A DNA stretch of 64,000 nucleotides from a virus. Of the stretch, positions 953 through 62,589 are shown piece by piece. Under the pieces are notes generated by a model that was not told where the DNA came from, did not search any database, and saw only the letters and a program-made list of their open reading frames with translations. The stretch is from the IMG/VR virus record IMGVR_UViG_3300037882_001881, positions 4,784 through 68,783 of that record. One strand, written 5' to 3'. The position numbers and the translations under genes are program-made. The number at the start of each line of letters is the position of its first letter. The stretch's first letter is position 1.

Positions 953-2080
953 TAACTGCTTGGCAATCTCGACATTTTCGTCCCAAAACGAGTCCAAAAC
1001 GGATGACGCATTGTTGCCAATGTAGTATGTTCTCGTCGTCTCGCTCGATGAGTGCCGCATTAGCGCCCCTAGCTGCATCTCATTGATTCGGCGAGATGCC
1101 CACCGTAACCCGAAAGACCGTCGCAGATCATGAGCACTGGCATACTTCACCGTTCCATCGGGACGGCGATCCACAACCACGCCAGACAATTTCCCGATCC
1201 GGAATATAAGCTTCGACAACTGGTCGGTATTCAGGACGCAATCAACACGTGTCGAGAGAACCTGGAACACAGGGCCGGTTCGATTTTCCGCCGGGACGGA
1301 GCTGATCAACGCCCAGAACTCCGGAGCCATCGGAAACACCCTGGCCTGACCGGCCTTATCCATATCGTCAGGCATCACGAAGACCGGGTTCTTATACGTC
1401 GTCCAGTCCACATGGAACGCTTCCCGGTCATCCCAGCTCAGGGTGCATTCGCTGATCCGCAGTCCGCTCAGCCACAGACCGCACAGCAGACGCTTGCACG
1501 CCTTCGCCCTCTCTGGATGCTGTGTGTAGATTTGATCCGTCGCCTTCAGCATCAACTTGAACTCCGCTTCGGTCAGGGGCCGACCCTTGCTCTTCTTACG
1601 CAACCGAGGCATGTCGAAATCCACGGCGCTGCTCGTGAACCCAGCCTTGTTCGACCATCGCAGCAATCGCTTCGTCGCTCGCAGCAACTTGTGCTGCGTC
1701 GCCTTCCCCATCTCGTGCCGAAGAAACACGTCTCGCAGGGCTGCCAGCTTGTCCGGTCGGATAGCTTTGACGTCTTTGATATTCGCCTCCGCCAGCAGAT
1801 TGAAGACCTGCCGGTAGATGCACTGCGTGCTCGGCCTCATCTCACTCATCACCTGACGCTCGAACATCGACAGCATGGGCTTCAGGGGCGTCTCCGGGAG
1901 TTCCCTTGGCTCATTGCTCGTCTCGGTTCCATGCAGTCTCACAAACTCTTCTGCGGCTTCGTCGATGTTGCTCGCCAGGGGCAGACGCTTCACCTTCCGT
2001 TTGCCGTCCTTCCCCGTGAAACTGGCGACCCAACAACCCCTGGTCTGGTAGTAATAGACACTACTGCTTTTCTTCTTCAT
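950..2080 (-). CDS. int: Tyrosine recombinase / phage integrase
   Basis: SGLRISE (Arg I), AHDLRRSF (HxxR), LMRHSSSETTRTYY (His and catalytic Tyr); N-terminal arm-binding-like region. Confidence 0.96.
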   Translation of the reverse strand: MKKKSSSVYYYQTRGCWVASFTGKDGKRKVKRLPLASNIDEAAEEFVRLHGTETSNEPRELPETPLKPMLSMFERQVMSEMRPSTQCIYRQVFNLLAEANIKDVKAIRPDKLAALRDVFLRHEMGKATQHKLLRATKRLLRWSNKAGFTSSAVDFDMPRLRKKSKGRPLTEAEFKLMLKATDQIYTQHPERAKACKRLLCGLWLSGLRISECTLSWDDREAFHVDWTTYKNPVFVMPDDMDKAGQARVFPMAPEFWALISSVPAENRTGPVFQVLSTRVDCVLNTDQLSKLIFRIGKLSGVVVDRRPDGTVKYASAHDLRRSFGLRWASRRINEMQLGALMRHSSSETTRTYYIGNNASSVLDSFWDENVEIAKQL

Positions 2081-2091
2081 GGCTCAGCTCC

Positions 2092-2418
2092 CTATTTCCC
2101 TGGTTTGCGAGTTCGTTTCTTGGCACGACTCGGCAGAGGTTCTTTTGACTCGAAGACAGCCTTGATGTCGGCGACCCGGAACACCTCGCGGTGTGTTCCA
2201 CTATTCACAGGGGTCAAGCCGTGCGTCTTCTTCATTCCCAACAGCGTTCGACGATCCATCCCGAACCACGCATTCAGGGCGTCGGCTGTGGTGTACTCGC
2301 GGAATGCCTCCGCTGTGGCCTCAATCAATCGTTCCCTGCGTAATCGAGCGATCTCTGCTCGCAGGGCCAGTAACTCCGTGTTTTCGTCCTCAAACGACCC
2401 GTCATGGTTCGTCTTCAT
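2092..2418 (-). CDS. Small DNA-binding protein upstream of int (possible recombination directionality factor)
   Basis: Start likely MKTNHDG; HTH-like TADALNAWFGMDRRTL...EVFRVADI; co-oriented with int. Confidence 0.5.
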   Translation of the reverse strand: MKTNHDGSFEDENTELLALRAEIARLRRERLIEATAEAFREYTTADALNAWFGMDRRTLLGMKKTHGLTPVNSGTHREVFRVADIKAVFESKEPLPSRAKKRTRKPGK

Positions 2419-3161: not shown

Positions 3162-3617
3162 CCGCTCTCTGCGCGCAACATGCCCCATGCGTACAAGACC
3201 CTCCCTAGGCGGGTATCCTCTCCCCCATTCTTCACCACCCCGAATGCTCCGGCCCTGTCCCCTGCGCGCAAGTAGCGACATCAGCGAGTCAAGTAGTAGC
3301 AGTCATTCGGTAACGGAGCCAGAACGTGCGGAGCCGGACCACACAGCCGAGATTGAACAGGGTCAGTCTCGACTGGCCACGGCGATTATTGACGCTGCCT
3401 ACCTACGGCGTACCGTCCCCAAACAGCCCACGGAACCACCCCGCTCGACCGTCCAGCGTCTCATACCCTGCGCCTCAGCGTTTTAATCGAACGTCTCAGG
3501 GCCGACGCTCACGCCTATTGGGAGTCTGCACTCCCAAGTCCAGTGTCGAGAATCGAACTCGACTCACCCCTCCAGGGACCAGAGTCTGTTACACCGTCCC
3601 GCCGGAACGCGGTATAT

Positions 3618-4564: not shown

Positions 4565-5094
4565 TACACACCGCCTTTCTTTCGTGTTCGGTAAAGCTCG
4601 TAAATTGCTGACGCAACTCCAGAGCCGTGTGACGTCATTTTTCCAATGATTGACCAACAGCACGTAGAGCCACCGCGACTGACGACATACTCTGCGTAGT
4701 CACAGATTGACCTCATTATTTCAGGGAGATTAGTTAGCGTGTCGCGGAACGACTCCTTGTCTCCGTGAAGGTCACTCAGGACTTTTTCGAGTAATTCAGG
4801 GTCGCATCCATTCGATTGCTGCTTCTCCATCTCCGCGACTTTCGCCCGCAACCGCTCGAATTCTGCATGGTACTCAGGCCCGCAGAACTCGACGCCCTCA
4901 TGGATCGCGACGGGGAGCGGTTGCAGGTCGCAGTCGTCGTCCTCGCGACACTCTCCATCCAATGTGTACGTGTCTCCATAGTTATCAATAACCGGAAACC
5001 CTGGTCGCTTCCCCGTCGCACAGACAATCTCAACTTCTTTTCCGCAACTCAAAAACTTCTGGCCAACCTCGATCGGCAGTTTGATCTCGCTCAC
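4564..5094 (-). CDS. Hypothetical phage protein
   Basis: GTG start overlapping TGA at 5091; AAGGAG RBS. Confidence 0.6.
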   Translation of the reverse strand: MSEIKLPIEVGQKFLSCGKEVEIVCATGKRPGFPVIDNYGDTYTLDGECREDDDCDLQPLPVAIHEGVEFCGPEYHAEFERLRAKVAEMEKQQSNGCDPELLEKVLSDLHGDKESFRDTLTNLPEIMRSICDYAEYVVSRGGSTCCWSIIGKMTSHGSGVASAIYELYRTRKKGGV

Positions 5095-6098
5095 AGGGTC
5101 TCTCCTTTCAGGGTCCAAATCCCGTCGCTCTCTTGGAATAGGTCCGAGTGCTTCTTCAGGCAACGTCGCACGACATCACGCTTGATGTTCAGCTTGATTG
5201 CGAGTTCTCCCGCACTCCATCCTCGCTGGCGAGCAATTCCTTGATCCGCAGGGCCAGTACGCTCCGTTTTCCCTTTGGGATTATCGCGTACTTGCTGATT
5301 CTTCTTTTCAGCATCCGTTCGGTAATCCCCAGCAAGCTCGCGGTACGGGCCTTGTGGTAGTGGCATTCTGACAGGGCTTGCGAGATGCGATCTCGCTCCA
5401 CTTCGGCCAGAGTTCGTGTCTTTGTCGGTGGGCTTTCCTTCACGTTCGCACCTCGCTCGCATTCGTTTCAGAATAGAGGAATGAATCTGACTCACCCGTG
5501 ACTCCGACAGACCCAGGCGAGCACCAATCACGCTCATTGTCAGGGACGACACGTAGTACAGTTGGATGATTTGCCTCTCGTCACCAGAGAGACCCTTCAT
5601 CAACTCTTCCATGACCTCGGTCGTTCTTATTGAACGCTCTTGCGCTGCGAATGATCCGTCCGTCAGATCGTCCTTAAGCTCGGTGTCGTCTACTCCGTCA
5701 TCGAATCGCTTCGTGTACTCCAGGGAATAAACCCTGGCAGGGATCACCTCTCCGCTCTTTTCTCGGCGTCGCTCCAGGCGTGGAACCCAATCCCACTCGC
5801 GAATTCCGTCCAGAATCGCACCGAACAAGCGAGTTTGAGCGATCGACGTGAACGCGACTTTCCTAGCAGGGTCGAACCGCTGGACCATGTCGATCAACGA
5901 CACGGCGGCATTTTCCTCCAGGTCGTCGAGTGCCGTTCCGACATCCACGACCAATTTCTTCTTGGCTCGATAGGCGATCTCCCTGGCAAACGGCCAGTAG
6001 TGTTCCACGAGCCGATTCCGATTTACCTCAGAGCGATCCGAGAAGTACGCCGCCCACAAGGGCTTCGCCTGCTCGTTCAACAGTGCATACTTTGTCAT
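5091..6098 (-). CDS. FliA/WhiG-family (sigma-28-like) RNA polymerase sigma factor with long C-terminal extension
   Basis: RNRLVEHY, FDPARKVAFTS..RLFGAILDGIREWDWVPR (region 2), IIQLYYVSSLTMSVIGARLGLSESRVSQIH (region 4). Confidence 0.9.
   Translation of the reverse strand: MTKYALLNEQAKPLWAAYFSDRSEVNRNRLVEHYWPFAREIAYRAKKKLVVDVGTALDDLEENAAVSLIDMVQRFDPARKVAFTSIAQTRLFGAILDGIREWDWVPRLERRREKSGEVIPARVYSLEYTKRFDDGVDDTELKDDLTDGSFAAQERSIRTTEVMEELMKGLSGDERQIIQLYYVSSLTMSVIGARLGLSESRVSQIHSSILKRMRARCEREGKPTDKDTNSGRSGARSHLASPVRMPLPQGPYRELAGDYRTDAEKKNQQVRDNPKGKTERTGPADQGIARQRGWSAGELAIKLNIKRDVVRRCLKKHSDLFQESDGIWTLKGETL
5189..5443 (-). CDS. Fis-family HTH protein nested in another frame within the sigma ORF extension
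   Basis: TLAEVERDRISQALSECHYHKARTASLLGITERMLKRRISKY matches the HTH_8 pattern; GAGGT RBS before GTG. Confidence 0.8.
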   Translation of the reverse strand: MKESPPTKTRTLAEVERDRISQALSECHYHKARTASLLGITERMLKRRISKYAIIPKGKRSVLALRIKELLASEDGVRENSQSS

Positions 6099-6210
6099 TC
6101 TTGCGCCCTCCATCAAGGGACTATTTACAGGGATGGCCCACAAGTCAAACTCCACTAGTTCACTGTGTCCAAGTTGTCCAAATTTCGACAGTTATTACAG
6201 AGGCGTCAGC

Positions 6211-9900: not shown

Positions 9901-12900
9901 TCGCACCGAGCATCTTGAAGCCGTTCTCGATGCGTTTGCGAGCTTTCTCGATGCCCGTCTTCACAACATCCGTAACCGTCTTCGTCTTCTTCTCTGTCTC
10001 CACCTCGGCCACTGCTGCGTCGTGAACCTTCTCGATGGCCAGGGCTTGTTCCGCCGCCTCCCGTGCGGCATCGGACTTCTCGGCCCTGTCAACCGCCTCT
10101 ATCACCTTCGCTTCCATCTCCGCCCAACGGTCGAGGTCGGCCTGAGACGGTTCCGCATTGGCGTGTTCGGCCCTGTAGTTCATGATCATCCGAGCGACCG
10201 AGTAGTCCCGTTGGATCGCCGCCTTGCGGTGCGCCAACGCTCGACCGGCTGCTGTGCCGCCAGGGTCGAGTATTCCCAACAAGATCGCTTCTTCCGCCGC
10301 TCTGGCCCTGGACTCGTTCTGGAACGCGACCACCTGAGCGGCGTTCCCGTCCGCCGACGCTTCTGCCAATCTCCGCTGGCTCTCTTCGTAGGCGTTGATG
10401 ACTTCCGTCTGGCGTCGTGATATCAGGGCGTCTTCGTAGTCGGTCAGGATGCGAGGTATCTCGACGAGGTCCGCAATCAAGCCGTCGATTTCTCCCTTGT
10501 CTGCTGCGTTCGCCCGCTCAGCTAAACGCTTCCATTTGTGCTCAGTGTGATCTCCCGCCAGGGTCCGATGCGGCAAGTCCATTGCTTCCCTGGTCGCATC
10601 AGAGTCGGCGTGCTTCGTCGCCAGTGGGTCAGGGATCGAGCCTTCTGGTGTTGCTCCATTTCCGGGTTCTTCCGGATTCTTCGGCGGCTCCTCGAAGAGC
10701 GTCGGCTGATCCGGCCCATAGTCGTTTCCGGGTTCCTCCGGTTCCGTGTCCCGCCGGGACGCTCCCTCGTCAAACTCTGTGCTGGGGTCCAAACGCTTAT
10801 CGACCGCCGCCATCTTTGCCCAGGTCGTCTTCATCAGGGGCCGGTACTGCTCGACCATATCCCCCATCGCCTCCGCCAACATCGACGAATACTCTGCGAA
10901 CGTCAGTGCCCCGGCCTTAATCGCCTTGACGGTGACGTTCACGAACGCCGTTATCTGCTCAGGGCTGAACGACCCAAAGTTCGGCGATGTTGCACCGCCC
11001 GATAGTTTTGCCAGCTTATCGACAGCCTCGCTGAACTCTTGCCGAGCCGCTTCCGCCTTGTCGGCGATCGTGTCCTTCGGGGCTGCGGCCCTGGCTTGCT
11101 CGATTTTTTGCTTCAGAGACTCCAGGGTCTCGTTCTTATCGCTGTGGTCTTGTCCAATCGGCATGATGATCCCGGCTAATTCTCCATCCTTGTAGAGAGT
11201 CAATGCCGCTTCCGCACCCCACATCGGCGTCTTCTTAACGACACTCGGACGACCCCTGAACTCAAACCCATTCTTTGAGAGGTAGTTGTAGTAACCCTCG
11301 TCAACGTCGATCGTGTACTCGCCGTCCGTCAGGACCGCCTTACCGATCATAAACAGGGTTGTGTTCTTCCCCTTGCTCTTCGGCTTGTCCGACAGCTTCT
11401 CGTGCCCCACCAGTGTCAACGGCACCGCACCCTTGGATGCCGCCTCGAACATCTCTCCGACGTTCTGAACCCTGCCTGAGTATCTCGCCATAACTCCGAC
11501 CGTCTCGGCCCTGGTCTTCAGGGTCTTCGGCAACGCATCGCTGAGAATCACCCATCTCGCATTGCTGATCGCGGGCTTATCTCCCACCTTGGAGTTGATA
11601 TAGCCCTCCTTACTGAGCATATCCGCGACGTTCGTTCGGTTCGGGACTGTGTCCGACCACGCCTTGCGAAACTCTTCGAGGTCCGCCGCTTCCTTGATCC
11701 CGTTCGCTGTCTTTGCAGCCGCCGCCTTGTCCTTGTTCTCCTGCGTCGCTTGCTGAACGACCCTTTCGTTCGTCCCTGCGTTGTACTTGTTGAGTTGCTC
11801 CCTGTAGTGCTTCTTGCGATACGAGTCCAGATGCGGCAGGGCTTCAATCGCCTTGCTCGCTCCCTCGTGCGACTTCGTGGCTTCCAGGGATCGAACCTCC
11901 CCGGAAATCATCTCCGACAGCGACCGTGATCCAGGGAAGTCCATAATGTAGAGCGATGCGCTCCGAGCGGCTTTCTTGGCGTCTTCGCCGGTCAAACTCT
12001 GGCCCTTCGCTTCCTTCAGGGCCATCTCGTTGATCTGTTCACGCAACCGCTTCTGCTCGCCTCGCGAGCTGTCCGTATTCACGTCGGAGAGAATCTTGTG
12101 CCGAGCGGCAATCGCGTTCGCTTCGTCCTTACCCGTGGACGTCGAGCCTTCCGACTTGACCTGCGATTGCGTCGCCACGTCTTCGAGCCACATCAGCCGC
12201 TTCTTTTCTCGCAGACCGTCGTAGTCGTTGTCCGCTTTGTGCTTCGATATTTTCTCCCGGAGCTTGTCGAGCCGCTTGCTCAGGGACTCCTTCAACTTCG
12301 TTCCGTACCCTGCCTTCTGGTACTTCTTATCGAGGTCTTCGTACTCGTCGTCCATCTTCTGGATAGACTCATCCAGGGTCTTAACACGAGCCTCGATCTC
12401 CAATCGCTCCGGAGACCCAGGAACAGGGGTCGTCCGTTGATACGACGTCGGTTCTGTCCCTGCGGCAGAAGGCTCCGCAACAGTGATGTTTCGCTTGGCG
12501 TCCTTTTTGCCAGTTGGGTCTTCTGCGACCGCTACTCGATGCCCAGCGTTGATCAGCTTTCTAAGGTATCCTTCTAGTGAATAATACGGGAACCCGGCAG
12601 TAACTATGGCGTTCTTGTTATCCGGCCCTGCTCCACTCACCGTCAAACTTAGCCCCAGCACTTTCGAGGCAACTTTCGCATCATCACCCAGCAGCTTGTA
12701 TCCATCCTCGTGACGAATCACGACAATCGACCCCGGATACTGCTGCTTAACCTCTTCGAGCTTCGTTTGCCAGGGTTCTTTCTTTGGTCCTTGAGCGACC
12801 TCTGCCTTCGCAGGGATCGGACCCTGCTTGTCCGCCAGATACGCCTTCACCCCTTCAAGCGACTCATTGGCCGATGGGCTGAACTTAGCCCGCTTGGTCA

Positions 12901-48414: not shown

Positions 48415-48419
48415 CGCAG

Positions 48420-49103
48420 TTACGCCGCGACTGAACTCTTTGGAAACCAGTAGTCCATATTCTCCCACGCGACGGATTGCCACAACGCAAAGTTCTCGTG
48501 GTCGTCTCCGTACCACCCACACGCAAACGGAGCATGAGCCTCCACCAACGCGATCTCTCCGGTATCCAGTCTCCCAAAGTCCACCGCCCCTGAGAACCCC
48601 TCCGGCCACTCGATCCAAAGCTCTGGAGCAATAGAATCCTCGTTCTCGCCCTGATACCAACACGCGTCTACCACACATCCATCCGCGACGTAGTACCGCC
48701 ACTCATCGACAAACTTCACGACATCCGACAAGTAACACCAGACGTTCGGAACCCTCTCTCCGACAGTCAAAATCCGAGTCGGATGCTCGTCGCTCTTCCA
48801 CGACTTTGCGTCCTTGAAAAACAACGGGGCACCAACGACTGTTCTTTCCCCAAAGTGTGACGGACGGAACAACGCCAACTCTCTCCGTCTCCAAGCCTTC
48901 AAGAACGTTGGGTAAAAATCCTTCAGACCCAATGCGTCGTCGCCCAGCACTCGCTCGCAGAACTCCACACTCCCGATCGGGATGCAACCCGGAGGACACT
49001 CTTTCGCAGGGATACATAAGACAGGTATCCCCAGCCTGCGTGCCCCTGCCGTAATCGCCATCTGCTCTCGCGACCAATTCCCTTGCTGAAGACAGAACTC
49101 CAT
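48420..49103 (-). CDS. ATP-grasp domain protein (DUF4343/R2K-like)
   Basis: PIGSVEF, FYPTFL...RR, FFKDA, EWRYYV, AVDFG......LVEAH...GWYG. Confidence 0.8.
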   Translation of the reverse strand: MEFCLQQGNWSREQMAITAGARRLGIPVLCIPAKECPPGCIPIGSVEFCERVLGDDALGLKDFYPTFLKAWRRRELALFRPSHFGERTVVGAPLFFKDAKSWKSDEHPTRILTVGERVPNVWCYLSDVVKFVDEWRYYVADGCVVDACWYQGENEDSIAPELWIEWPEGFSGAVDFGRLDTGEIALVEAHAPFACGWYGDDHENFALWQSVAWENMDYWFPKSSVAA

Positions 49104-49180
49104 AACTCCCCCTAGAAATCCCCTGCCGATCCGCCCCTTCGGACTCTTGTTCGTTCGCTTCCTCGAACTCATGGCTGCCA

Positions 49181-49759
49181 CTAAACATCCTCGGCATCGT
49201 AAACAATCCTGTACTCACCGTTGTCTTTCTCCTTCGGCTGAACCCCAATCACCGGGAGCTTCTTCGGGTTCGCGTCTCGGAAAGCCCTATTCATCATCCC
49301 GCGACGAGTCTCGGCAAGACTGATCGCCTCCAAACGCTGGCGGTAGTTGTTGCGAACTTCTGCGTCACGCTGAGCAACCTGCTCTATGGATGTGCCAGAC
49401 TGGTTCAGGTACGCCCTTGCGTGCATCAACAGTTTAGCCGAGTCCATAAACATCCCAAGTCCTGCATTGCATCGACCACACAAAAGCCCTCTCACCTTGC
49501 CAGTCTTGTGGCAATGATCAACAACCAACTTGTCGCCGCACTCCATCGCACAGATAGCACACAGACCGCGACACGTCTCTCGCATTGCGGAAAATTGCTT
49601 TTCTGTCAGACCATACTTCGACAGTCGAGCTAAATGGTTGGCCCGTTTTGGGTCGCGAGGCGGGCGATCCTTCTTAGAACGACCTGACCTGCGACACTCC
49701 TTCTCCAACTCCTTCACGCTCGCCAGGAACGCATTTGACATCGTCGTTCTCATCAACAA
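49181..49759 (-). CDS. Recombination endonuclease VII-like nuclease
   Basis: KYGLT...CAIC...LVVDHCHKTGKVRGLLCGRCNAGLG. Confidence 0.92.
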   Translation of the reverse strand: MLMRTTMSNAFLASVKELEKECRRSGRSKKDRPPRDPKRANHLARLSKYGLTEKQFSAMRETCRGLCAICAMECGDKLVVDHCHKTGKVRGLLCGRCNAGLGMFMDSAKLLMHARAYLNQSGTSIEQVAQRDAEVRNNYRQRLEAISLAETRRGMMNRAFRDANPKKLPVIGVQPKEKDNGEYRIVYDAEDV

Positions 49760-50288: not shown

Positions 50289-50339
50289 GCAAAATGCTAC
50301 ACTTCTCGCTCCGAGAGTGTTGCAAAATGCTACACTTCT
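50289..50339 (+). repeat. Two 18-bp direct repeats GCAAAATGCTACACTTCT
   Basis: At 50289 and 50322 (33-bp spacing) in long intergenic region. Confidence 0.85.
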
Positions 50340-50829
50340 TGCCGTCCCGCCGGAACACCGCCGCCGAAACCGAGCAATCTCTAGCCACTCCCACCTCTCC
50401 TTCCTCCGTATCGCTCGTCACGTGTCCCGCTTTTGTCCCGCCGTTGGCCCATTGCCTTCACCGCTCACCAGTTCCACTCCTTGGCCTTCTCCGTTCCGCG
50501 TCTGCTCTCCCTTGCCTGTCTCTCTTCTCTCTTCCTTCTACGCCTTCGTTCGCCAGGGTCCGAGCCTTCCGCCTGCCCTGCTCTCGCCCGCTTCGTCCCG
50601 CCGGAACACCTCACCGCTTCACCGCTCCGGGCCGCTCGCCCGTCTCCGTCTCTTGCCGCCATGTCCGACCGTCCCGATCGACCTCTCTTTGTCCACTTTT
50701 CTACATTCTGACAAATTCTCTCACTCTGGCGTTGACTGAATCTCGATCATCTGCTCTATTACGCCTCGCCAGGGTCCAACCCTCCCTGCTCAGTGCCGCA
50801 CGTCACGGATCGTGCCGAGAAACGCCGTC

Positions 50830-51101: not shown

Positions 51102-52709
51102 ATGCCGACAGTCACCTATTCCCCCGAAGACAACAAAATCCGCCTCTATGTTGGCAGGGTTCCCCGCGACGAGTACGAGACGCTCAGGGCCGCAGGCTTC
51201 GTCTCCACCCCCAAACAGAACTGCGATTTTGTCGCCACTTGGACCCCTGGACGCGAAGACCTCGCGAAAGAGTACCTTGAAGACGGTGAAGACATTGGCG
51301 ACGAGGACTACAGCCCTGAAGAGCGTGCCGCCGACAGGGCCGAACGCTTCGGAGGCTATCGAGACAAGCGAGCCACTGAAGCCGGTGCCGCTGCTGATGT
51401 GTTCGAGTCAGGGCCGCAGGCTTTCGGCTCCCAATCTCTCGCCAGGGCCGAGCGTCAGGCCCGCCGACACGATCGGCACCGCGTCTACGCTGTCTCTCAG
51501 TGGTCTAAGGCTGAGTACTGGCAGCAACGCACCGCCGGAGTGATCGCCAACGCTCTCTATAAATCCTCGCCGCATGTTCGCAGGGGCCGCATCTTGACCC
51601 TCGAAGCCGAACAGCGGAAACAACTCGCGTCGATCGCAGAGTCACAGGCGCGATACGATGCTTGGCACCGACTCGCCACGATGGAAGGAGCCGACGACAT
51701 GCTTCCGCTCAACGAGGATGGCTATGTCTCCGGCGAGCTGAACCCAGCCCAACGGCTTGCCTGCACGCTCGCCAATCACGGCAACGGCTGGTCCTCATTC
51801 TGGCACCCTACATGCGAAGCCGCTAACGAGAAGTCGAGGGAGGTCCACAAGACCTACGGCGCAGGGTTCAGCCCTTACGACCTGTTGACCAAGACCGTTT
51901 ACATTGGCACACAGTTCGACCGCCTGACACCACGCCAAGTCGCCCAGCTCTACGTCAACAAATACACGAACCCAAGCAACCCCGGCACACACTCGCAACG
52001 ATGGGCGAGCCATTACGAACTTCGCTTAGAGTATGAAAACGACATGCTTGCCAACGAGGGCGGAATGGTCGGCGAAGCTGACATCGAGGTCGGCGGTTGG
52101 ATTCGTGGCGCAGACACAGAAACTTGGCTGCGACGTCTGCCTGCTGTTACGTGGCACCAAATCCAGGGAATCTCTCGCTCACCAAAGACCAAGCGAGTCA
52201 CGAGCGTTAAAGTCAACGGCTTCACCCGCAGCGAAATCGAGAAGAACAACGGAAAGCCAGTCTTGGTCAGCGTCAACATCGAGCGTCTCGGCGAAGGTTG
52301 CTACAGGGCACCGACAGACGAGGAGCGGGCCGCATTCTCAGCCACAAAGAAAACCCTGAAGGCTGCGACGCCATCAACCCCGACAATCAATCCCACTCTC
52401 AAAGATGCTCAAGCCCTTCAGGACTTTTGGAACGCCGAAGCTCTTTCCGGCGGGAAAACGACCAAGGTCGTCGAGGTACGCCAGATGACACAGGCGGAGT
52501 TCAGCGGTCGCCTCAAGCATGAGCACGCCCAAATCTCTACGCACACCCTCGGAGGCCAACGCCTCAAGCTACGCACTGCCAGGGGCGGAGGCTTCTACGA
52601 TTACCGCGCCGCCCGTCAAGTTATCGTCCTGACCGACAAGCCGCAGAAGTCATTGCCTCCCAATTGGGCCGTCGTCGAAACCTCAACGCCTGAACTCGTC
52701 GAGGCGTAG
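51102..52709 (+). CDS. DUF3560-like domain protein
   Basis: ATWTPGREDLA...DED....ERAADRAERF..Y..KR, AEYWQQR, RRGRI..LEAEQRK. Confidence 0.8.
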   Translation: MPTVTYSPEDNKIRLYVGRVPRDEYETLRAAGFVSTPKQNCDFVATWTPGREDLAKEYLEDGEDIGDEDYSPEERAADRAERFGGYRDKRATEAGAAADVFESGPQAFGSQSLARAERQARRHDRHRVYAVSQWSKAEYWQQRTAGVIANALYKSSPHVRRGRILTLEAEQRKQLASIAESQARYDAWHRLATMEGADDMLPLNEDGYVSGELNPAQRLACTLANHGNGWSSFWHPTCEAANEKSREVHKTYGAGFSPYDLLTKTVYIGTQFDRLTPRQVAQLYVNKYTNPSNPGTHSQRWASHYELRLEYENDMLANEGGMVGEADIEVGGWIRGADTETWLRRLPAVTWHQIQGISRSPKTKRVTSVKVNGFTRSEIEKNNGKPVLVSVNIERLGEGCYRAPTDEERAAFSATKKTLKAATPSTPTINPTLKDAQALQDFWNAEALSGGKTTKVVEVRQMTQAEFSGRLKHEHAQISTHTLGGQRLKLRTARGGGFYDYRAARQVIVLTDKPQKSLPPNWAVVETSTPELVEA

Positions 52710-52795
52710 CAGATGGCAGGGCTGAGCCGTTCAGCCCTGTAATGCACTCCGGCGGAGCGTCCCGCCGGAACGGTCCAAAGTCCGAGGCTCTCACC

Positions 52796-53431
52796 ATGTC
52801 ACGATCCACCGGAATCCTCCGCCTGCGGCACCTTCGCGAAGTCACCGAGGCCAGGGCCGAAGAGATGGCCGCTCAGGCTCCTCGCTTCCAGAGACTTACC
52901 CGCGAAGACTCTGCCCCACGGGCTATCTCGTCGTTCAATCTCTTTCAGACTCCGCCGTCACTTGCTGCCAGGGTCGTAGCCTTGCTCGGTCGCACTGGCC
53001 GCACCCTGGAGCCGTCCGCCGGTCTCGGTCGCCTTTACCTCGCCGCCCGTGCTGCTGATCCATCCTCGCCCTTTGTGCTAGTTGAGCAGTCGCCCGACTG
53101 CTGCGGTGAGCTTTACAGGGCCACAGCAAACGACCACGACTGCCGGTTGATCCAGGGCGATTTTCTCGCCCAATCACCAACTTCGCTCGGACTGTTCGAT
53201 TGCGTTGTGATGAATCCCCCGTTCAAGATGGGGCGAGACGTCAAGCACATCGAGCACGCTTTGCGGTTCCTCGCCCCTGGTGGTCGCCTCGTCTCGATCT
53301 GTGGCACAGGGTCGAGACGTCAACCGTTGTTCGATCGTGCCTCCCAAGTGATCCCACTGCCGCCCGGCTCATTCCGTTCCGAGGGGACAGGGGCCGAGGC
53401 TTCGATTGTTGCTTTCGATCAGGGCCGGTAG
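52796..53431 (+). CDS. N6-adenine DNA methyltransferase-like protein
   Basis: NLFQTPP, LEPSAGLG (motif I), GDFL, FDCVVMNPPF (motif IV), F..EGT. Confidence 0.9.
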   Translation: MSRSTGILRLRHLREVTEARAEEMAAQAPRFQRLTREDSAPRAISSFNLFQTPPSLAARVVALLGRTGRTLEPSAGLGRLYLAARAADPSSPFVLVEQSPDCCGELYRATANDHDCRLIQGDFLAQSPTSLGLFDCVVMNPPFKMGRDVKHIEHALRFLAPGGRLVSICGTGSRRQPLFDRASQVIPLPPGSFRSEGTGAEASIVAFDQGR

Positions 53432-54146: not shown

Positions 54147-54566
54147 ATGACCAACTCGGAAACCCACACTCTGCCGCGCACGGGGCAACCGCCGCTCCGT
54201 GTCGTCGGCACACTCGTTTACAGGGCCAGCAGCAGGCAGACCCCAACAAAGAAGGGTCGGCCCCTGGAGACTCGCTGGCATGAGCTGTCGGTCTATCTCT
54301 CTGAGTCCGGCCAGACGGTCGGTCACATCAGCTATCGCACCGAGTGGCCAGGGGAACTTGACGACGCATTGGCCAGGGTCGCTCCGATCCCTGACCTCGT
54401 CCGTTGGCTCGAAGACCACGACCCGACCGGAGCCGTTGTCGGTTTTCCGGCGGGACGGGGATTTGCCGACCGCCAGTCGGCCCTGCTCACAGCGGTCGAA
54501 CACGGGTACGATCGTGCCCTGAGTGAGCTGCTCGCAGGGCTGGGAGTGACCGAAACCGTCGAATAG
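54147..54566 (+). CDS. Hypothetical protein
   Basis: LPRTGQPPLRVVG...RWHELSVY...TEWPGE. Confidence 0.65.
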   Translation: MTNSETHTLPRTGQPPLRVVGTLVYRASSRQTPTKKGRPLETRWHELSVYLSESGQTVGHISYRTEWPGELDDALARVAPIPDLVRWLEDHDPTGAVVGFPAGRGFADRQSALLTAVEHGYDRALSELLAGLGVTETVE

Positions 54567-54646
54567 TCATCCCGTCCCGCCGGAACGCGGGAACGCGGGA
54601 CAATCTTAGGCGCAGATTAGGCTGCGGCAATGCAGTGTAATCTGCG

Positions 54647-56558: not shown

Positions 56559-57011
56559 TTAAAACGGAACGTCTCCATCACCGCCCGGCGGAGGGAACGC
56601 CCCTGCCGCTGCGTCGTAGTCAGGGCCATCCCCTTGATTGTTCGGCTCTTGTTGCTGACGAGGTGATCCACCATCACCCTTGCTGCCGAGCAACTGCATT
56701 GAGTCGCCGATAACCTTCAGTTTGCTTCTTTTCTGCCCTGACTCCTTATCCGTCCACGAGTCGAGCGACAGCTTTCCGCAAATCAGAATTGCCGACCCTT
56801 TGCGGCAGTATTCGGCACATACCTCGGCGGTCCTATTCCAAAGAGTCACATCCACAAACACGCACTTCTCTACCATCTCCCCAGACTTAGCTTTGTACTT
56901 CTCGTTTATCGCCAATCCAACCTCAGTAACCGCCGCACCTCCAGGGGTGTACTTCAATTGAACATCGCGGGTTAAATTTCCCATAAGAGTTACTTGATTC
57001 AGGCTTGGCAT
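56559..57011 (-). CDS. ssb: Single-stranded DNA-binding protein
   Basis: LNQVTLMGNLTRD...C-terminal DGDVPF. Confidence 0.96.
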   Translation of the reverse strand: MPSLNQVTLMGNLTRDVQLKYTPGGAAVTEVGLAINEKYKAKSGEMVEKCVFVDVTLWNRTAEVCAEYCRKGSAILICGKLSLDSWTDKESGQKRSKLKVIGDSMQLLGSKGDGGSPRQQQEPNNQGDGPDYDAAAGAFPPPGGDGDVPF

Positions 57012-57682
57012 TCTTGCATCTCCTTGCGTTGTCTTGTTCTCTTTGGCGGCATTGTAAATATCACACCCACTGCCAAACCAATTTTGAGGCGATGCCTCGC
57101 AGTCGAGTACGGAACATTGTAAATCTCGCACCACTCTTTGAGGCACCTAGTGACGCCATCTATGGCTATCATCCTGTTGTCCCTTCTGTTTCTCTGCTGC
57201 TCCTTCTTTGTTGCCCATCGACAGTTTCCAGGCTCGTAATTGCCGTTCATGTCAGGCCATCTGTCGAGCGTTTTTCCTTCGGGACGAACTCCCATATCGC
57301 TCAAAAAGTCCTCGAATGAATTCATCCATCTTTCACACACGGTTATACCGCGACCACCATAGCTACTGTATTCCGTGGCCTTTTCATTTGTGCATCGTGC
57401 CTTCATCGTTGCCCACGTATAATAAGTCCCCGACTTGTGCATTCCGTGCTTCACATTCCTCCTGCCAAATCGTTCCTCTCTCAGGCATCCACAGTGACCA
57501 GTTATTTTTGCTGATCCATGCTGTAGGATGATCGTGCCTCCACAATCACAATTCCACATCCAGTGATACGCTGCTTCACCTCTTCTCTCATGGGGGAGCT
57601 GTGCCACCAAGAGTCCGCACCTCACTCCTTTTATATCTCTGTACTTATTAACAGATACCTCTTTGCCTGACGCATCTTTCAT
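56999..57682 (-). CDS. HNH homing-endonuclease-like protein
   Basis: WATMKARC, YGGRGITVCERW, TLDR....GNYEPGNCRWAT; lower GC than flanks. Confidence 0.9.
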   Translation of the reverse strand: MKDASGKEVSVNKYRDIKGVRCGLLVAQLPHERRGEAAYHWMWNCDCGGTIILQHGSAKITGHCGCLREERFGRRNVKHGMHKSGTYYTWATMKARCTNEKATEYSSYGGRGITVCERWMNSFEDFLSDMGVRPEGKTLDRWPDMNGNYEPGNCRWATKKEQQRNRRDNRMIAIDGVTRCLKEWCEIYNVPYSTARHRLKIGLAVGVIFTMPPKRTRQRKEMQECQA

Positions 57683-57825: not shown

Positions 57826-58380
57826 TTACTTCTTTAGCAGCAACCACTGAATCATCTCCCTTTTGTAGTTCTCGTATGGCTCAGGGAGCTGACCCTGCGC
57901 CTCTAACCAATCGACAAACGGCACTCCCACGATCTTGCTCAACACGTCGGCGTCGAACTCTTTTGGCAGGGCCGGATCAATCTGGATGCCAGCCAGCTCG
58001 GTCAGCATCTCGTTATGCACCTGCTTCTGAAACTTGGCGTAGAGGCAGGCCATGCGGAACTCGTTCGGTGCCTTGTCGTGCCCGTAACTGTGAGCCGCCG
58101 CCCCGACTATGATCAGGTTCGTCCGCATCTCCTGCTCACGAGTCCCTCGCCCGAAGATGTGATGCACCTGCTTCTCGCTCGGCCCGTTCCAGCACAGGGA
58201 CCACTTGTGCCACACCAGCCCGTCGAGGTACGCACTGACCTCGCAGTGCGATACCTCCTGATGGTACGCCACGCAGGCCAAGGTCCGAGCCTTCTTTACC
58301 GACAGGGTTCTCTGCGCCGCAAGAATGTCGTCCGTGTCGTAGGCACGCCCCAACGCTTCGTTCCTGTCCTGCTGATCCAT
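57826..58380 (-). CDS. HNH-like nuclease-fold protein
   Basis: QVHHIFGRG...NLIIV....HSYGH. Confidence 0.6.
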   Translation of the reverse strand: MDQQDRNEALGRAYDTDDILAAQRTLSVKKARTLACVAYHQEVSHCEVSAYLDGLVWHKWSLCWNGPSEKQVHHIFGRGTREQEMRTNLIIVGAAAHSYGHDKAPNEFRMACLYAKFQKQVHNEMLTELAGIQIDPALPKEFDADVLSKIVGVPFVDWLEAQGQLPEPYENYKREMIQWLLLKK

Positions 58381-58397
58381 CAGGCTACCTCGGTCCA

Positions 58398-58667
58398 TTA
58401 TTTCTCGCTCCGTGCATCAGGGTCCGTCACGTCGTCGCTTGTCTGTCCCGCCGGAACGCTGTCACTTGCCGGGGGCGACTTCTGGTCGTCGAGGATCGCC
58501 TTTAGCGTCGCGTTCGCCTGTCGCCGGGGGTCTGGTCCCTCCGCCTCCGGTCCCTGCGGATTGACTGCGGTGAGCAGCAGCAGCAGGTTTGCCACCGTTT
58601 CCACCGCTCTCACCTCGTGGCTGTCCAGCTTGGGGATGTTCTGTCCGTTTTGGATCAATACTCGCAT
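58398..58667 (-). CDS. Hypothetical protein
   Basis: ORF MRVLIQNGQ; overlaps another candidate ORF. Confidence 0.4.
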   Translation of the reverse strand: MRVLIQNGQNIPKLDSHEVRAVETVANLLLLLTAVNPQGPEAEGPDPRRQANATLKAILDDQKSPPASDSVPAGQTSDDVTDPDARSEK

Positions 58668-58989
58668 TCTCAGGGTTCTTTCGTTCTGAGGCAGGAGCAA
58701 CCGGCCCTGACTCGATCTTTGGTACGTCTGGCGCAGGGACTTCCTGAGCCAGTTCAATTGCATCCATCTCCGACAGCACCGTGCGTATCGACTCACGGGC
58801 GCTGATCGAAAGCCAGGGTTCTTTGTTTCCGACCAACAACCGCATTCTGGTCATCAACCGGGACTTTCCGCTGTCCCGTCTCGCCCTGATCACCAGGGCT
58901 GCCATCTCCGTCGCCGTCAGGGACGACTTCTCCAAAAGTTTCTGCCCCAACATCAGGGCCACACTGTCCGCCTCGGTAAACTCCCGCAT
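58462..58989 (-). CDS. Hypothetical protein
   Basis: MREFTEADS with GGAGAGG RBS; 3' part overlaps next ORF. Confidence 0.45.
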   Translation of the reverse strand: MREFTEADSVALMLGQKLLEKSSLTATEMAALVIRARRDSGKSRLMTRMRLLVGNKEPWLSISARESIRTVLSEMDAIELAQEVPAPDVPKIESGPVAPASERKNPENASIDPKRTEHPQAGQPRGESGGNGGKPAAAAHRSQSAGTGGGGTRPPATGERDAKGDPRRPEVAPGK

Positions 58990-59188
58990 ATCCCTCTCCG
59001 AACACTTCCAATGGGCAATCAATCAACCGAGTCGGCAGGAAGCCGAGCCACTCACCAGGGCGATTCGAGTCCAGGGGAGGACCATTGAACGTGCAGAAGT
59101 GTTGCTCGCCCTGATAATCAGCCTGCGGCACTCCTCGCATCGCGAGAAGATGCTCGCAGCCCTGGCGGGACCGCAGTTTCTCTATCAC
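58793..59188 (-). CDS. Hypothetical Cys-containing protein
   Basis: GTGA coupling to upstream gene; CEH...HFC...DCPL. Confidence 0.4.
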   Translation of the reverse strand: MIEKLRSRQGCEHLLAMRGVPQADYQGEQHFCTFNGPPLDSNRPGEWLGFLPTRLIDCPLEVFGEGYAGVYRGGQCGPDVGAETFGEVVPDGDGDGSPGDQGETGQRKVPVDDQNAVVGRKQRTLAFDQRP

Positions 59189-59790
59189 AATTCAACGTCC
59201 CGACCAGTGGCTAAACTGAGGGCTTCCTGCATTGAACGCACTTCGCAGGCTTTTTTTGCACGTTCCGCCTGCGAATTAACGATCCGGACGGCGTCTGAGT
59301 GCATTGAAGAACTCCACGTGCGATACGTCGGATTGGAGTCCACTTTGAATAACTTCAGCAGTTTGGTGACTCGCTCTAAGTTATTCTCAAGTCGCTTTTT
59401 CAGGGCAATAAGCAACCCAACCCAACCCACATCGTGGTACACAGAGTGCATACTGAACCGATCCATCTTCGGTGACACCAGAAGTCCACCGTGCCCAGCA
59501 TGAATTCCTGTGACTATTCTCTTCGTTCCCATATCGTCTATAACGGCGATCGAGAGTTTTTTCCTGACCGAAGCCTCGTTGTCTTTGATGTGCCTCGTGA
59601 TCGCTTCCTGCAACGCTGAGTACGACTGATAGGCGATAGACATCTCATCGAAGACGAACCGATAATTTCGGTCCACATGGAACTCGAACCCTTCGCACGT
59701 TCCCTTAGCAACAACATCTTCAGCCACTTCTTCCGGCATCTCACTTCTCCTGCTGTAAACGGTCTCTTGAAACTCCCTTGGCGACGCCAC
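59185..59790 (-). CDS. Hypothetical protein
   Basis: 201-aa ORF; start may be MPEEV near 59739. Confidence 0.6.
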   Translation of the reverse strand: MASPREFQETVYSRRSEMPEEVAEDVVAKGTCEGFEFHVDRNYRFVFDEMSIAYQSYSALQEAITRHIKDNEASVRKKLSIAVIDDMGTKRIVTGIHAGHGGLLVSPKMDRFSMHSVYHDVGWVGLLIALKKRLENNLERVTKLLKLFKVDSNPTYRTWSSSMHSDAVRIVNSQAERAKKACEVRSMQEALSLATGRDVEL

Positions 59791-61660
59791 TCCATAACTC
59801 TGAGCCAGGGGCCGGGCACATCGACACCCGACGTGTTTCCCTGGTCTTACGATCCCAAAAAATCATGAACCCTTCGTGTTTGAACTTCCCTTCGAGGATC
59901 GCGAACCGATCCCCGTACCGCTTGTGAAACAGCCCCTTGAGCTGTGCGAACGTGGCACTCTGGTTGCCCTTGCAGTTAACGCTCGGCCAGTACAGTTGGT
60001 TCCAATGCTGTTGAGCTTCTTGCAGGCCGCTCTTCGACTTCGCGAAGTCTTCATCGGAGAACTTCTTCAGTCGCCCGTTGGTCTGAATCACCTGCCACTC
60101 GGATTTTGAGAACTCTTTGCCGCAGTCCGGATACACACACTTCTTGCCGTTCTTTTCCCATAGGGACAGCTTCATCGGTCGATTACATGCAGGACACTTC
60201 TTCACCTCGCCGTCATCCTCCGCCGCTCCTGCATCGCCGTTGCAGAACTTGCACTTCTTCCCGTTCGCCTCCCACACTGCTTTGAGCTGCGACCGATGGC
60301 AAACAGGGCATTTCACTCGCTCGGCGTTCTGTCGTTCCTTTGCACTCTTGACCGTATCCCCCAGCTCCCATTCGAGGTCTTGGTTCGGACTCGGTTGATC
60401 ACGCCAATGCCCGGCATGGTCCTGAATCAAACACCGTGACTTTCCCGTTTCACCGTAGGCTCGAACCCCACGCCCTGCCGCTTGAATCCAGAACGCAATA
60501 CTGTTGATCCTCGTGGCGAAGATGATGTGTTCCAGCCAGGGCCAGTCCACACCGAGAGAGAACACCAGACGATTCCACACGATCGAGATGATCCCCAATC
60601 GGCTCAACTCGCTGGCCACCTCTCTTGCCGCCTCGCCTCGATAGACGACCCTCTCTCCGTCTGGTCGCTTCTCCCCGAAATACACCTTCTCACCGTCGAT
60701 CGAGCAACAGGCGATCCCACGCTCCCAACCCTCGTCCACCAACCACAGACAGGACTCGACATTCGGCCCGAATCCCAGGGTTGGTCGGCACTCAGGGTTG
60801 TATTCCTGCCAATGGTCGTAAATCTTCCCGACCACCCGTTGAATCATGACCCGCTTCGCCATCTCATTCGGCGAGTTCTCCCCGTTGTTGATCTTCCCGA
60901 CATGCCGCAAATCAATCTCTTCCGGACACCGCATTTCCGCCGGGACGAGCGCCCCGACCGCTCGCATCTGGCTCGGTCTCCCCCAATAGATCATCTCTTC
61001 ATTGAAGCCCAAATTGACAGGGGTTGCCGTCTGACCCAACTGAAACGCCCCGTGCCCCCAATGCCATTGCCATGCCTCTTTCGGGAACCCTGTCGAGTTC
61101 GCATGATGCTCGTCCCATATGCAGAACTTCGCATCGTGAAACTCCCGCTTCGACCGCTCCTTCACCGCCGACCGTTCCGAAGGGACCATGATCAGTTGGC
61201 AGGGTTTTCTGATATCGAGAGCCTCCGGCATCCCTGCCCACCTCACCCCGTGCTCAATCCCTGCCTCGACGAAACCCTTGTGTGTCTGCTTCAGTAACAT
61301 CTGGCGATGGATGTAGAACGCCGATGTCGTTCCCTCTTCGTAAAGACGGTTCAGGATCAGTCGAGCCGTCCTCGTCTTTCCAAACCCTGTCGGAGCCACC
61401 GCCACAACCGATCGCACCCCGCTGTCTCGCAACTCGAACGTCTTCTTGACCGCCGCATCCTGAATCGCCCCCCAGGCCGCGAAGTCGATCGGTCGGCCCT
61501 GCCTCACGCCCCACTGAGGCACCACCATCCGACGACGCTCGATGTACCGACAGAGCCTCCACATCTCAGGGACCGGAGCCTCTTCGCCACCAATCGCCCG
61601 CTCCTGCTCCGTCAGCTCGTGCAGCTCATGAATTTCGTCGGTGTCGAAAAGTGTCGCCAT
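59741..61660 (-). CDS. Superfamily 2 (DExH) helicase with C-terminal zinc ribbons
   Basis: APTGFGKT, WDEHH, TATP, LGVDWP, QAAGRGVR, CPVC/CKFC/CPAC. Confidence 0.92.
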   Translation of the reverse strand: MATLFDTDEIHELHELTEQERAIGGEEAPVPEMWRLCRYIERRRMVVPQWGVRQGRPIDFAAWGAIQDAAVKKTFELRDSGVRSVVAVAPTGFGKTRTARLILNRLYEEGTTSAFYIHRQMLLKQTHKGFVEAGIEHGVRWAGMPEALDIRKPCQLIMVPSERSAVKERSKREFHDAKFCIWDEHHANSTGFPKEAWQWHWGHGAFQLGQTATPVNLGFNEEMIYWGRPSQMRAVGALVPAEMRCPEEIDLRHVGKINNGENSPNEMAKRVMIQRVVGKIYDHWQEYNPECRPTLGFGPNVESCLWLVDEGWERGIACCSIDGEKVYFGEKRPDGERVVYRGEAAREVASELSRLGIISIVWNRLVFSLGVDWPWLEHIIFATRINSIAFWIQAAGRGVRAYGETGKSRCLIQDHAGHWRDQPSPNQDLEWELGDTVKSAKERQNAERVKCPVCHRSQLKAVWEANGKKCKFCNGDAGAAEDDGEVKKCPACNRPMKLSLWEKNGKKCVYPDCGKEFSKSEWQVIQTNGRLKKFSDEDFAKSKSGLQEAQQHWNQLYWPSVNCKGNQSATFAQLKGLFHKRYGDRFAILEGKFKHEGFMIFWDRKTRETRRVSMCPAPGSELWSGVAKGVSRDRLQQEK

Positions 61661-61815
61661 TGTCACTCGCACCCTGTAAAAACACCCCGAACCCAAGCAG
61701 TTGTTCGCGAAAAAGGACTCTTCTCCTGCGGCTCATATTGGGCCGGAGGCTATTGGATCGTCGCTCGATGTGGTCACAGTCCCAACGATTGAAACGACCA
61801 CGTTTGAGGCCAGGG

Positions 61816-62589
61816 CTACTTCGATTTCAGATTCACCTTCGACCGCTTTGCCCAATCCTTGATCTTCTTCGAGAGAATCTCTTCAAGGTCCGTCACAAAG
61901 GCGTCCAAAGTCCGTAGGCTCTCCTCGCCGTGCCCGTCCGCCTTGTTCAGCTCTTTCCCCGCCGCTGCCGCCCTGGTCAACGCGGTCATCGCTTCGCCAA
62001 CCTTCTTCAGCATCATCAACAGGGTCGATTCGATCTTGTCCTTCGTGAACACCGTCCCGGCGGAAACAACGTCTCGCACCTCGTTGTACGTCGTCCTCGG
62101 TTTAGCCGTCCCCTGTATCACAGCCTCCGCCATCTCCGGAGATTTCCGCTCGATCGTCAGTGCCCGGCTCAAGACCGGACGACTGATCCCTGTCTCGTTA
62201 TGAATCTCCGTCAGGGTCACAGCAGGGTTATTAGCGACCCGCTCCTTGATCAGTATTTGAGCGTACTGAGCCAGGGACAGATGCCGCCGATGCAGGTTCT
62301 CCGCGAGAATGAAATTCTCCATCGCCTGCTCGACTTCACGCTCGTCCGTTGCCGTGAACGGCGGAATCCATTCGACGAACTTCTGAACAACAGGGATACC
62401 CTCGGCAATCAGTTCGTCGCTCGCCCGCACGCGATGCCGCCCGTCGAGCACTTCGCCCCTGAACATCACAATCGGATGCCGCTCGTCGAACCCATTGTTC
62501 GCCATCGACGCCTTGAACGCAGCAAACTGATCCGCAGGCATCTCTGGTAACACCAGACAAAGCCGGTGGTACTTACGCTTCTCGCTCAT
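61816..62589 (-). CDS. ParB-like N-terminal domain protein with HTH
   Basis: PIVMFRGEVLDGRHRVRA, ENLHRRHLS, TLTEIHNETGISRPVLSRA. Confidence 0.85.
   Translation of the reverse strand: MSEKRKYHRLCLVLPEMPADQFAAFKASMANNGFDERHPIVMFRGEVLDGRHRVRASDELIAEGIPVVQKFVEWIPPFTATDEREVEQAMENFILAENLHRRHLSLAQYAQILIKERVANNPAVTLTEIHNETGISRPVLSRALTIERKSPEMAEAVIQGTAKPRTTYNEVRDVVSAGTVFTKDKIESTLLMMLKKVGEAMTALTRAAAAGKELNKADGHGEESLRTLDAFVTDLEEILSKKIKDWAKRSKVNLKSK

Follow-up and report, generated by a model that had tools for sequence, protein, structure and literature searches.

We analysed a 64,000-nucleotide stretch of viral DNA (the window), which comprises bases 4784–68783 of the 68,783-bp virus record IMGVR_UViG_3300037882_001881; the record is classed as linear, with an estimated completeness of 71%. 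A 13-bp word, GTCCCGCCGGAAC, recurs throughout this phage genome, and its degenerate family GTCCCGSCGGRAM totals 28 distinct sites in the record. The motif family is a real, strongly selected and phage-specific feature. We give a probability of roughly 0.7 to the reading that these are recognition sites of a putative sequence-specific DNA-binding protein encoded by the phage itself. The leading candidate binder is an orphan ParB-like protein (61816–62589, minus strand).

An earlier note on this DNA had listed 14 exact copies of the 13-mer and 14 variants, and had put the chance expectation at about 0.01 exact copies. All 14 exact positions were recovered, with no further exact copies in the window; a 15th lies outside it, for a total of 15 in the full 68.8-kb record. 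The 14 variants are likewise all present, each with 1–2 mismatches, and dinucleotide shuffles (n = 100) gave a mean of 0.01 exact copies, the largest count being 1. When ≤2 mismatches to the 13-mer were allowed, there were 44 matches in the window (palindromic sites being counted double), against 3.42 expected and a shuffle maximum of 7. Of the cores, TCCCGCCGGAA recurs most: 23 occurrences are exact, and the number is 36 when ≤1 mismatch is allowed. The consensus widens to 15 bp, Y-GTCCCG-S-CGGAA-M-R: at exact-core sites the base preceding the G was Y in 23 of 23 cases, and the base following the 13-mer was R in 20 of 23.

Enrichment persisted under the check that the note had proposed, a codon-preserving shuffle, which swaps synonymous codons within each gene and retains both the proteins and the codon usage. 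Over 300 such shuffles the 13-mer, observed 15 times, had a mean of 3.4 (maximum 6); the 11-mer core, observed 23 times, a mean of 4.9 (maximum 8); and the degenerate 13-mer, observed 28 times, a mean of 4.8 (maximum 7). The residual shuffle counts mostly represent sites in DNA that was left unshuffled. With a second gene set (n = 100) the values were 15 against 5.5 (maximum 8) for the 13-mer and 28 against 7.9 (maximum 11) for the family. The two kinds of shuffle together rule out chance and codon artefact.

Selection is on the DNA and not on the peptide, as had been proposed. Within called genes the motif encodes every instance of four tetrapeptides (7/7 VPPE, 3/3 VPAE, 5/5 VPAG and 3/3 SGGT), whereas codon usage alone would have a VPPE encoded by the motif in only ~3.5% of cases. 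These peptides therefore exist owing to the DNA word. A peptide-driven repeat was rejected on the same data, since four different peptides are encoded and each tetrapeptide instance uses the motif. The further claim, that the motif is independent of reading frame, stood in part. Based on codon-usage-based gene calls, it occurs in several frame and orientation classes with differing peptides (VPPE/VPAE, VPAG, SGGT/SAGT and SRRD/FRRD), but in only four of the six possible classes: all 10 same-strand sites are in frame 0, while the opposite-strand sites fall in frames 0, 1 and 2 in the numbers 5, 4 and 2.

Placement relative to genes is close to random. Depending on the gene set, 21–24 of the 28 sites lie within ORFs, which cover 84–93% of the DNA. 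Within genes, 10 sites are on the gene's strand and 11 on the opposite strand. Genome-wide orientation is 13 plus to 13 minus, without polarity (permutation p = 0.46, or 0.57 once one of two repeat-derived sites is dropped); an origin-centred polarity of KOPS or Chi type was accordingly not significant. Unoriented, mostly genic placement of this kind speaks against promoters, terminators, roadblocks oriented with transcription, nick motifs confined to one strand and polar signals like Chi or KOPS. Near-random placement with balanced orientation favours instead a two-fold recognised site that acts on the whole DNA molecule. The arm layout is a 6+1+6 near-palindrome whose outer positions are symmetric (Y-GT...AC-R).

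Two specific candidates were also set aside. An RNA hairpin or terminator would have a 1-nt loop with 6+1+6 arms, and, as read from the sequence, only an extended copy upstream of terL could fold. A promoter for the phage sigma factor was rejected: the sites have no conserved downstream element, most are genic and in either orientation, and the terL copy is too near the start codon.

The exact 13-mers are spread over the whole window. Two are intergenic, at 3596–3608 (plus strand) and, between convergent ORFs, at 54574–54586 (plus). On the minus strand, 31589–31601 and 39352–39364 encode VPPE, while 13813–13825 and 14218–14230 lie in the first and second copies of a 405-bp internal repeat of a 3279-aa ORF and are thus not independent. 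Antisense copies on the plus strand correspond to SGGT at 28238–28250 and to VPAG at 33568–33580, 36186–36198 and 58445–58457. The other exact copies, all plus, are at 50344–50356 and 50595–50607, at 52759–52771 (the 5′ end of a methyltransferase ORF) and at 46401–46413. The last is embedded in a 23-bp palindrome (CGAGC...GCTCG, 46396–46418) lying 17 bp upstream of the start codon region of terL, a distant terminase large subunit gene (46435–48414); this extended palindrome is indeed present just upstream of the ribosome-binding site, as described in the note. The copies at 50344 and 50595 fall in a pyrimidine-rich, poorly coding 1.3-kb region (49.8–51.1 kb), possibly regulatory, that also contains the direct repeat AAATGCTACACTTCT twice at 50290–50350.

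Variants ending in AAA occur on the minus strand at 12991–13003 and 17037–17049 (both encoding VPPE), at 34996–35008 (intergenic, inside the structural operon) and at 54444–54456, and on the plus strand, antisense and corresponding to SGGT, at 22110–22122 (in a 2227-aa ORF) and 38925–38937. The variant GTCCCGGCGGAAA is found within the integrase ORF (1285–1297, minus), within the helicase ORF (60934–60946, minus) and, antisense, inside the ParB-like gene itself (62054–62066, plus). The variant GTCCCGGCGGAAC occupies 2983–2995 and 42725–42737, both minus. The symmetric variant GTCCCGCCGGGAC occurs at 10748–10760, in the 3279-aa ORF, and at 30114–30126. Two weaker sites keep the core exactly, TTCCCGCCGGAAC at 27334–27346 (plus) and TTCCCGCCGGAAA at 52444–52456 (minus).

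A terL search yielded as relatives the contigs L001/L245, L246 and L002 plus distant loci, none of them from the genome contig collection. Contigs 94–96% identical to the window retain sites. In one of these, L001, the two arms of the terL palindrome have changed jointly, to CGAGT...ACTCG, and the site at 42725 is retained. At the latter position the 70%-identical L002 aligns ungapped yet bears unrelated sequence, so that this site arose by substitutions and not by insertion; insertion of a 15-bp cassette is accordingly rejected for it. The majority of copies fall within genes, where point substitutions created them and recoded the peptide at that place. L002, whose terL is a 65% relative at the protein level, had no motif in 7.5 kb, matching places included. 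In the mosaic relative L246, two sites are retained (50595, amid otherwise diverged sequence, and 52444), one is degenerate (50344) and one new copy stands at a replacement junction. By these alignments, site turnover between relatives is fast.

The phage is temperate, to judge from a tyrosine integrase (950–2080; PF00589, E = 1.2e-9) and an adjoining 132-aa protein with two excisionase-type HTH_17 domains (124–522, minus strand). The two genes flank an attP-like core (window 854–905), which is the 3′ portion of a tRNA; identity to a tRNA 3′ part beside an integrase is the usual signature of an attP/attB core. When the genomes of 185,579 species were searched with a 29-base string of this core, there were seven exact matches, all in metagenome-assembled genomes (MAGs) of Planctomyces, Planctomycetaceae or Planctomycetia, and phage and MAG were identical there over 46–52 bp at 100%. 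At five of the seven MAG loci the core falls within the 3′ portion of a gene for tRNA-Arg(CCG), and two MAGs bear a second, tRNA-less core copy, as expected with an integrated element. Because the tRNA-Arg(CCG) identity matches only Planctomycetota MAGs, Planctomycetaceae is the likely host; a Planctomycetota host had already been guessed. The GC values are in accord with this, at 57.4% for the phage and 56.7% for the host loci sampled. Searching the called phage proteins against 13 host loci by tblastn gave no matches. The phage also encodes a factor of the sigma-70 family (5091–6155, minus) that has regions 2 and 4 and is extended C-terminally by ~120 aa; in the Atlas its structural neighbours often come from Planctomycetota, a weak taxon hint.

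Short direct repeats surround the attP-like core (640–680 and 760–945): CACAGAACCA stands in a tandem of three, and (G)TGAAACA recurs several times. They may be arm-type sites for the integrase or excisionase. By coincidence, (G)TGAAACA is identical to one half of parS in its consensus form.

The motif belongs to the phage and not to the host chromosome. Four candidate host genomes (6.7–8.1 Mb) with an exact attB-like tRNA-Arg have 3, 6, 1 and 2 copies of GTCCCGSCGGAAM, against 26 in the 68.8 kb of the phage, which is ~500 times denser. Among 301 Planctomycetota genomes the exact 13-mer was present in 114, with a maximum of 6 per genome, similar to a reversed-pattern control. A 14-mer scan of viral and genome contig collections showed single copies among the matches listed, which by itself is uninformative. 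The earlier note had set a phage system against a host-wide iterated palindrome, expected at equal density in the host; the densities found (1–6 per 6.7–8.1 Mb, and ≤6 in each of the 301 genomes) favour the former and exclude an uptake sequence, a HIP1-type palindrome or Chi. HIP1 showed no enrichment in the phage. One candidate host MAG does hold two motif copies 90 bp apart, with flanks that fit the 15-bp consensus (L272 (G304:C82), 1501 and 1591). Near this pair we found no phage homologue, and a neighbouring ORF had only a sub-threshold integrase-SAM-like match.

The protein of ORF 61816–62589 (257 aa) had been called ParB-like, and profile, box motifs and structural model agree with that identity. 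The ORF alone had no Pfam match and gave a weak "ParB-like" match in PHROG. An exhaustive search collected 2324 relatives, and a 78-member family profile matched Spo0J (1vz0) at E = 1.2e-13 and ParB and Noc chains at values to 2.5e-7, spanning the N domain and the HTH. Of the family's box II (GxxRxxA) and box III (ENLxR) motifs, a box-II-like GRHRVRA aligns with GERRYRA of Spo0J, and a box-III-like ENLHR with ENLQR. Pfam ParB_N matched two of the 78 family members, the query not among them, and HTH_ParB matched six; the query itself had sub-threshold HTH matches at residues 118–144. The AlphaFold2 (AF2) model has a pLDDT of 89.7. All 20 of its 20 best Foldseek matches in the PDB were Spo0J, Noc, ParB or KorB, over alignments of 170–210 columns; TM-scores were low (0.2–0.4) because the domain arrangement differs. 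The model shows an N-terminal ParB domain and an HTH domain, and ends in a C-terminal hairpin of two long helices (residues 183–218 and 222–249). Profile and model together thus identify a true member of the ParB/Spo0J/Noc/KorB family with an HTH domain. Homologues in viral and genome collections are 23–42% identical, and one distant homologue carries a fused MT-A70 methylase domain. A search for canonical parS found none in the phage and, at ≤1 mismatch, none in the four candidate host MAGs.

Our tentative proposal is that this orphan ParB-like protein uses the scattered motif copies for loading or as operators. In the manner of KorB at OB and Noc at NBS, a dimer would nucleate on the two 6-bp half-sites and from there might act along the entire phage DNA, either in global silencing or temporal control of transcription or in organising or marking replicating phage DNA. 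Somewhat more doubtful is the full version, in which an orphan ParB-fold clamp would load at the ~28 parS-like sites in coding DNA, slide genome-wide, and silence the prophage or organise and mark phage DNA as self. We infer protein binding at the sites, the identity of the binder and the consequences of binding; the coating of the genome at ~2-kb intervals, the genome protection and the host mimicry suggested in the note are conjecture.

Several observations weigh against pairing the motif with the ParB-like protein. The near-palindromic 6+1+6 layout would suit a dimeric HTH protein, the note having suggested a dimeric protein, but the arms are consistently unequal: in 26 of 28 sites a GTCCCG half stands opposite a GTTCCG half and only 2 of 28 are symmetric, and core matches read in that orientation have C at the centre 23 times and G 6 times. 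Such arm asymmetry and a C-preferring centre are unexpected for a simple homodimer site. The outer-to-outer spacing is 15 bp, against the 16 bp of parS. No ParA/CbiA-type family was seen among the ~65 ORFs scanned, a scan that did not take in the large structural ORFs, and the protein was therefore classed as orphan; orphan ParB-like proteins are described as a class common on phages and mobile elements with largely unknown roles (PMC12704722). As the phage integrates by way of its integrase, plasmid-type partition is not needed.

Gene context weighs in the same direction. The ParB-like gene sits between ERF and helicase genes in a minus-strand early operon for replication and recombination, and in Acidovorax phage AP1, whose homologue (29% identity) is the sole one that we found in a cultured phage, the gene immediately precedes a helicase and a primase. 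Both contexts point to a replication function for this protein. A dispersed many-copy motif was seen in none of six viral loci with distant homologues, nor in AP1.

Tandem arrays near ParB-like genes could be the true cognate sites; tandem centromere repeats are the cognate sites of some plasmid ParB proteins. In the phage, a 54-bp tandem repeat of at least 8 units covers window positions 63699–64000 and record bases 31–138 (L250), overlapping ORF 63404–63973. It lies upstream of the ERF, ParB-like and helicase genes and ~1 kb from the ParB-like gene, and its presence at both record ends indicates that the assembly was interrupted within it. Candidate identities are an iteron-bearing origin, a centromere-like array and a coding repeat. 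Homologue loci have arrays of their own, with a 37-bp period at L255:1049–3204 and an 18-bp period at 3261–3600 of AP1 (L260). A further locus, L256, has a 22-bp perfect palindrome twice (10371 and 17421), once within the ParB-like gene.

The asymmetry that troubles a ParB-like homodimer could be read by a protein with two DNA-binding domains, and the sites could be operators or roadblocks for another phage regulator, as in stoperator-like, genome-wide silencing of a prophage. We consider this unlikely, though several features speak for it: the phage is temperate, with its tyrosine integrase and attP-like tRNA-Arg fragment; the word has 13 bp, its asymmetry is consistent and its copies number more than 20; and the 132-aa tandem-HTH_17 protein (124–522) encoded beside the integrase could, as a two-domain monomer, suit that asymmetry, an unrecognised repressor being the other candidate. 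Stoperators, however, are intergenic and transcription-oriented, yet here 21–24 of 28 sites are genic and those within genes divide 10 to 11 between the strands. Symmetry at the motif's outer positions also counts against this reading; HTH_17 proteins encoded next to integrases are, by their PHROG names, usually excisionases that act at attP; and no homologue of the Cluster A repressor was seen, although no search was aimed at one.

A host Planctomycetaceae factor, chromosome-organising or regulatory, for example a divergent host ParB or a dimeric regulator that the phage recruits or titrates, would explain why the candidate hosts hold a few copies (3, 6, 1 and 2), among them the G304 pair 90 bp apart that fits the extended consensus, and it would accord with the lack of canonical parS in the four MAGs. 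But these counts are near a composition expectation that we estimate at ~1.6 per genome (reversed-pattern control 0–1), the MAGs are incomplete, and no informative family was recovered for the genes beside the paired host sites. At matching places L002 is without the motif, which a fast-evolving partner encoded by the phage fits better. We regard a host factor as improbable.

Equally improbable in our judgement is that the sites are cut, nicked or recombined by a phage nuclease or recombinase, after the manner of T5-like or tf-like nick motifs or of hotspots for mosaic exchange. Phage nick motifs are known, are mostly genic and include WACTRTGAC, with 13 copies (PMC11780129), and the phage encodes an HNH endonuclease (56999–57682; PHROG E = 1e-52), an endonuclease VII (49181–49759) and a set of ERF, PD-(D/E)XK and AAA_23 proteins. 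One motif copy also stands exactly at a junction with L246, where 720 bp of the window (48413–49133, an ATP-grasp R2K gene) are exchanged for 168 bp (window 48420–49759 against L246:641–809) in otherwise 96–99% identical sequence. Against this, known nick motifs are on one strand only while the present sites divide 13 to 13, nothing links the HNH enzyme with the motif sequence, and the single junction is an anecdote, other mosaic breaks relative to L246 and L001 being away from sites.

Modification by the SAM-dependent methyltransferase (52742–53431; PF05175, E = 9.6e-7) or by a host enzyme, to mark phage DNA as self, is the least credible alternative: a motif copy at the 5′ end of the methyltransferase gene, the MT-A70 fusion of a distant ParB-like homologue and the strong avoidance of restriction-type palindromes in this genome would fit it, but to our knowledge 13–15 fully specified bases far exceed any methyltransferase target, and ~28 marks per 69 kb would protect little.

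The remaining features of the genome concern the motif less directly. Long minus-strand ORFs fill 6.8–46 kb, and further genes encode an ATP-grasp protein, a DUF3560 protein, an AAA_23 ATPase and a PD-(D/E)XK nuclease. Four minus-strand ORFs with overlapping stops and starts (57826–58398, 58398–58796, 58793–59188 and 59185–59790) are probably the real genes there, in place of longer plus-strand ORFs; they had no family match.

Composition is unusual in other respects. CAGGG/CCCTG is a second over-represented, phage-specific word, with 619 occurrences against 252 after codon-preserving shuffles (examples at 8260, 16274, 24614 and 51185), and for the octamer CAGGGCCG the corresponding counts are 59 and 11. 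Each of the two is found on both strands and in all frames. Per kb, the phage has 9.0 and 0.86 of them, whereas 56.8 kb of candidate host DNA has 1.16 and 0.035. The related word CTGGG/CCCAG falls short of the shuffled count, at 75 against 162. Palindromes of 6 bp often number 0–2 where the codon-preserving shuffles lead one to expect 10–40: CGGCCG 0 against 39.5, GGCGCC 0 against 24, GTCGAC 1 against 33.5, GCCGGC 2 against 33, CAGCTG 0 against 25 and CCCGGG 0 against 19.6. GCGC (70 against 326) and CGCG (202 against 423) are also scarce, while CGATCG, TCGA and GATC are not depleted. The pattern is probably one of broad restriction avoidance, and amid such genome-wide avoidance of palindromes 28 copies of a near-palindrome are the more striking.

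The proposed pairing is testable, since it joins one well-folded ParB-like HTH protein to one sharply defined 15-bp word imposed by recoding. If it holds, ParB clamp biology would extend to genome-wide control in viruses; sliding from the sites as a clamp would be the first function for the orphan ParB-like proteins that are widespread among integrating phages, and would likely explain the repeats of the Cluster O mycobacteriophages. If the pairing fails, the motif still marks a DNA-level system under strong selection. The phage is in either case a rare temperate phage tied to Planctomycetaceae through an exact attP/tRNA-Arg match.

We compared the motif with known systems. The nick motif of tf-like Pseudomonas phages is likewise a short, phage-specific and mostly genic word, with about a dozen copies and a debated function, but it is 9 bp long and non-palindromic, and is confined to one strand (PMC11780129). 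Cluster A stoperators share with the motif a temperate phage and an asymmetric 13-bp word in more than 20 copies genome-wide; they differ in being intergenic or promoter-sited, oriented with transcription and read by a two-domain monomeric repressor (PMC9283540), whereas the sites here are mainly intragenic, unoriented and near-palindromic. With the consensus parS, TGTTTCAC-GTGAAACA (PMC7383237), the half-site YGTTCCG has the outer TGTT and a C two bases inward in common, a partial resemblance.

Noc nucleates at NBS sites scattered round the Bacillus subtilis chromosome (PMC8429893), and so offers a ParB paralogue without ParA that nucleates on scattered palindromic sites and spreads. The NBS differs in being an even palindrome of 16 bp, TATTTCCC-GGGAAATA (PMC7383237), and Noc in serving chromosomal nucleoid occlusion by way of a membrane-targeting helix. 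In both sequence and fold, the ParB-like protein has Noc chains among its best matches.

KorB chain 8qa9 is also among the structural matches of the ParB-like model. Plasmid RK2, in which IncC is a partner protein of KorB, has about a dozen OB sites, against the ~28 motif sites here. The OB oligonucleotide holds a 13-bp 6+1+6 palindrome, TTTAGC-G-GCTAAA (PMC11790492), so that length, layout and a central G/C are shared with the motif. OB is bound by a CTP-dependent clamp of the ParB family, and its copies, scattered over a mobile element ~60 kb long, serve global silencing at a range of kilobases. The sequences differ, OB is symmetric and RK2 is a plasmid, not a phage; KorB moreover has the partner KorA (PMC11790492), while no partner was identified for the phage protein.

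Cluster O mycobacteriophages such as Corndog carry 34 copies of TGTTCGGNNNCCGAACA together with a ParB-like gene; the function of the repeat was described as unknown in 2015, and its authors predicted that a dimeric protein binds the 17-bp repeats (PMC4351075). In our literature search no paper gave the repeat a function, and a 2019 genome announcement notes it, at 31 copies, in phage Ryadel. Both phages thus have a ParB-like domain gene and some 30 or more near-invariant inverted-repeat copies across a ~70-kb genome, unoriented to transcription and mostly not promoter-sited, and the outer half-site begins TGTTC there, like the half-site YGTTCCG here. The repeat is 7+3+7 bp in Cluster O and 6+1+6 here (7+1+7 with flanks); its arms are perfectly symmetric there and consistently unequal here; and about one third of its sites are coding there, against 75–86% here. 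Cluster O phages, as that source presents them, have actinobacterial hosts and no integrase, in contrast to the integrase and likely Planctomycetaceae host of the present phage. The closest known phenomenon is the Cluster O 17-bp repeat, and the closest known mechanism that of KorB at OB or of Noc at NBS.

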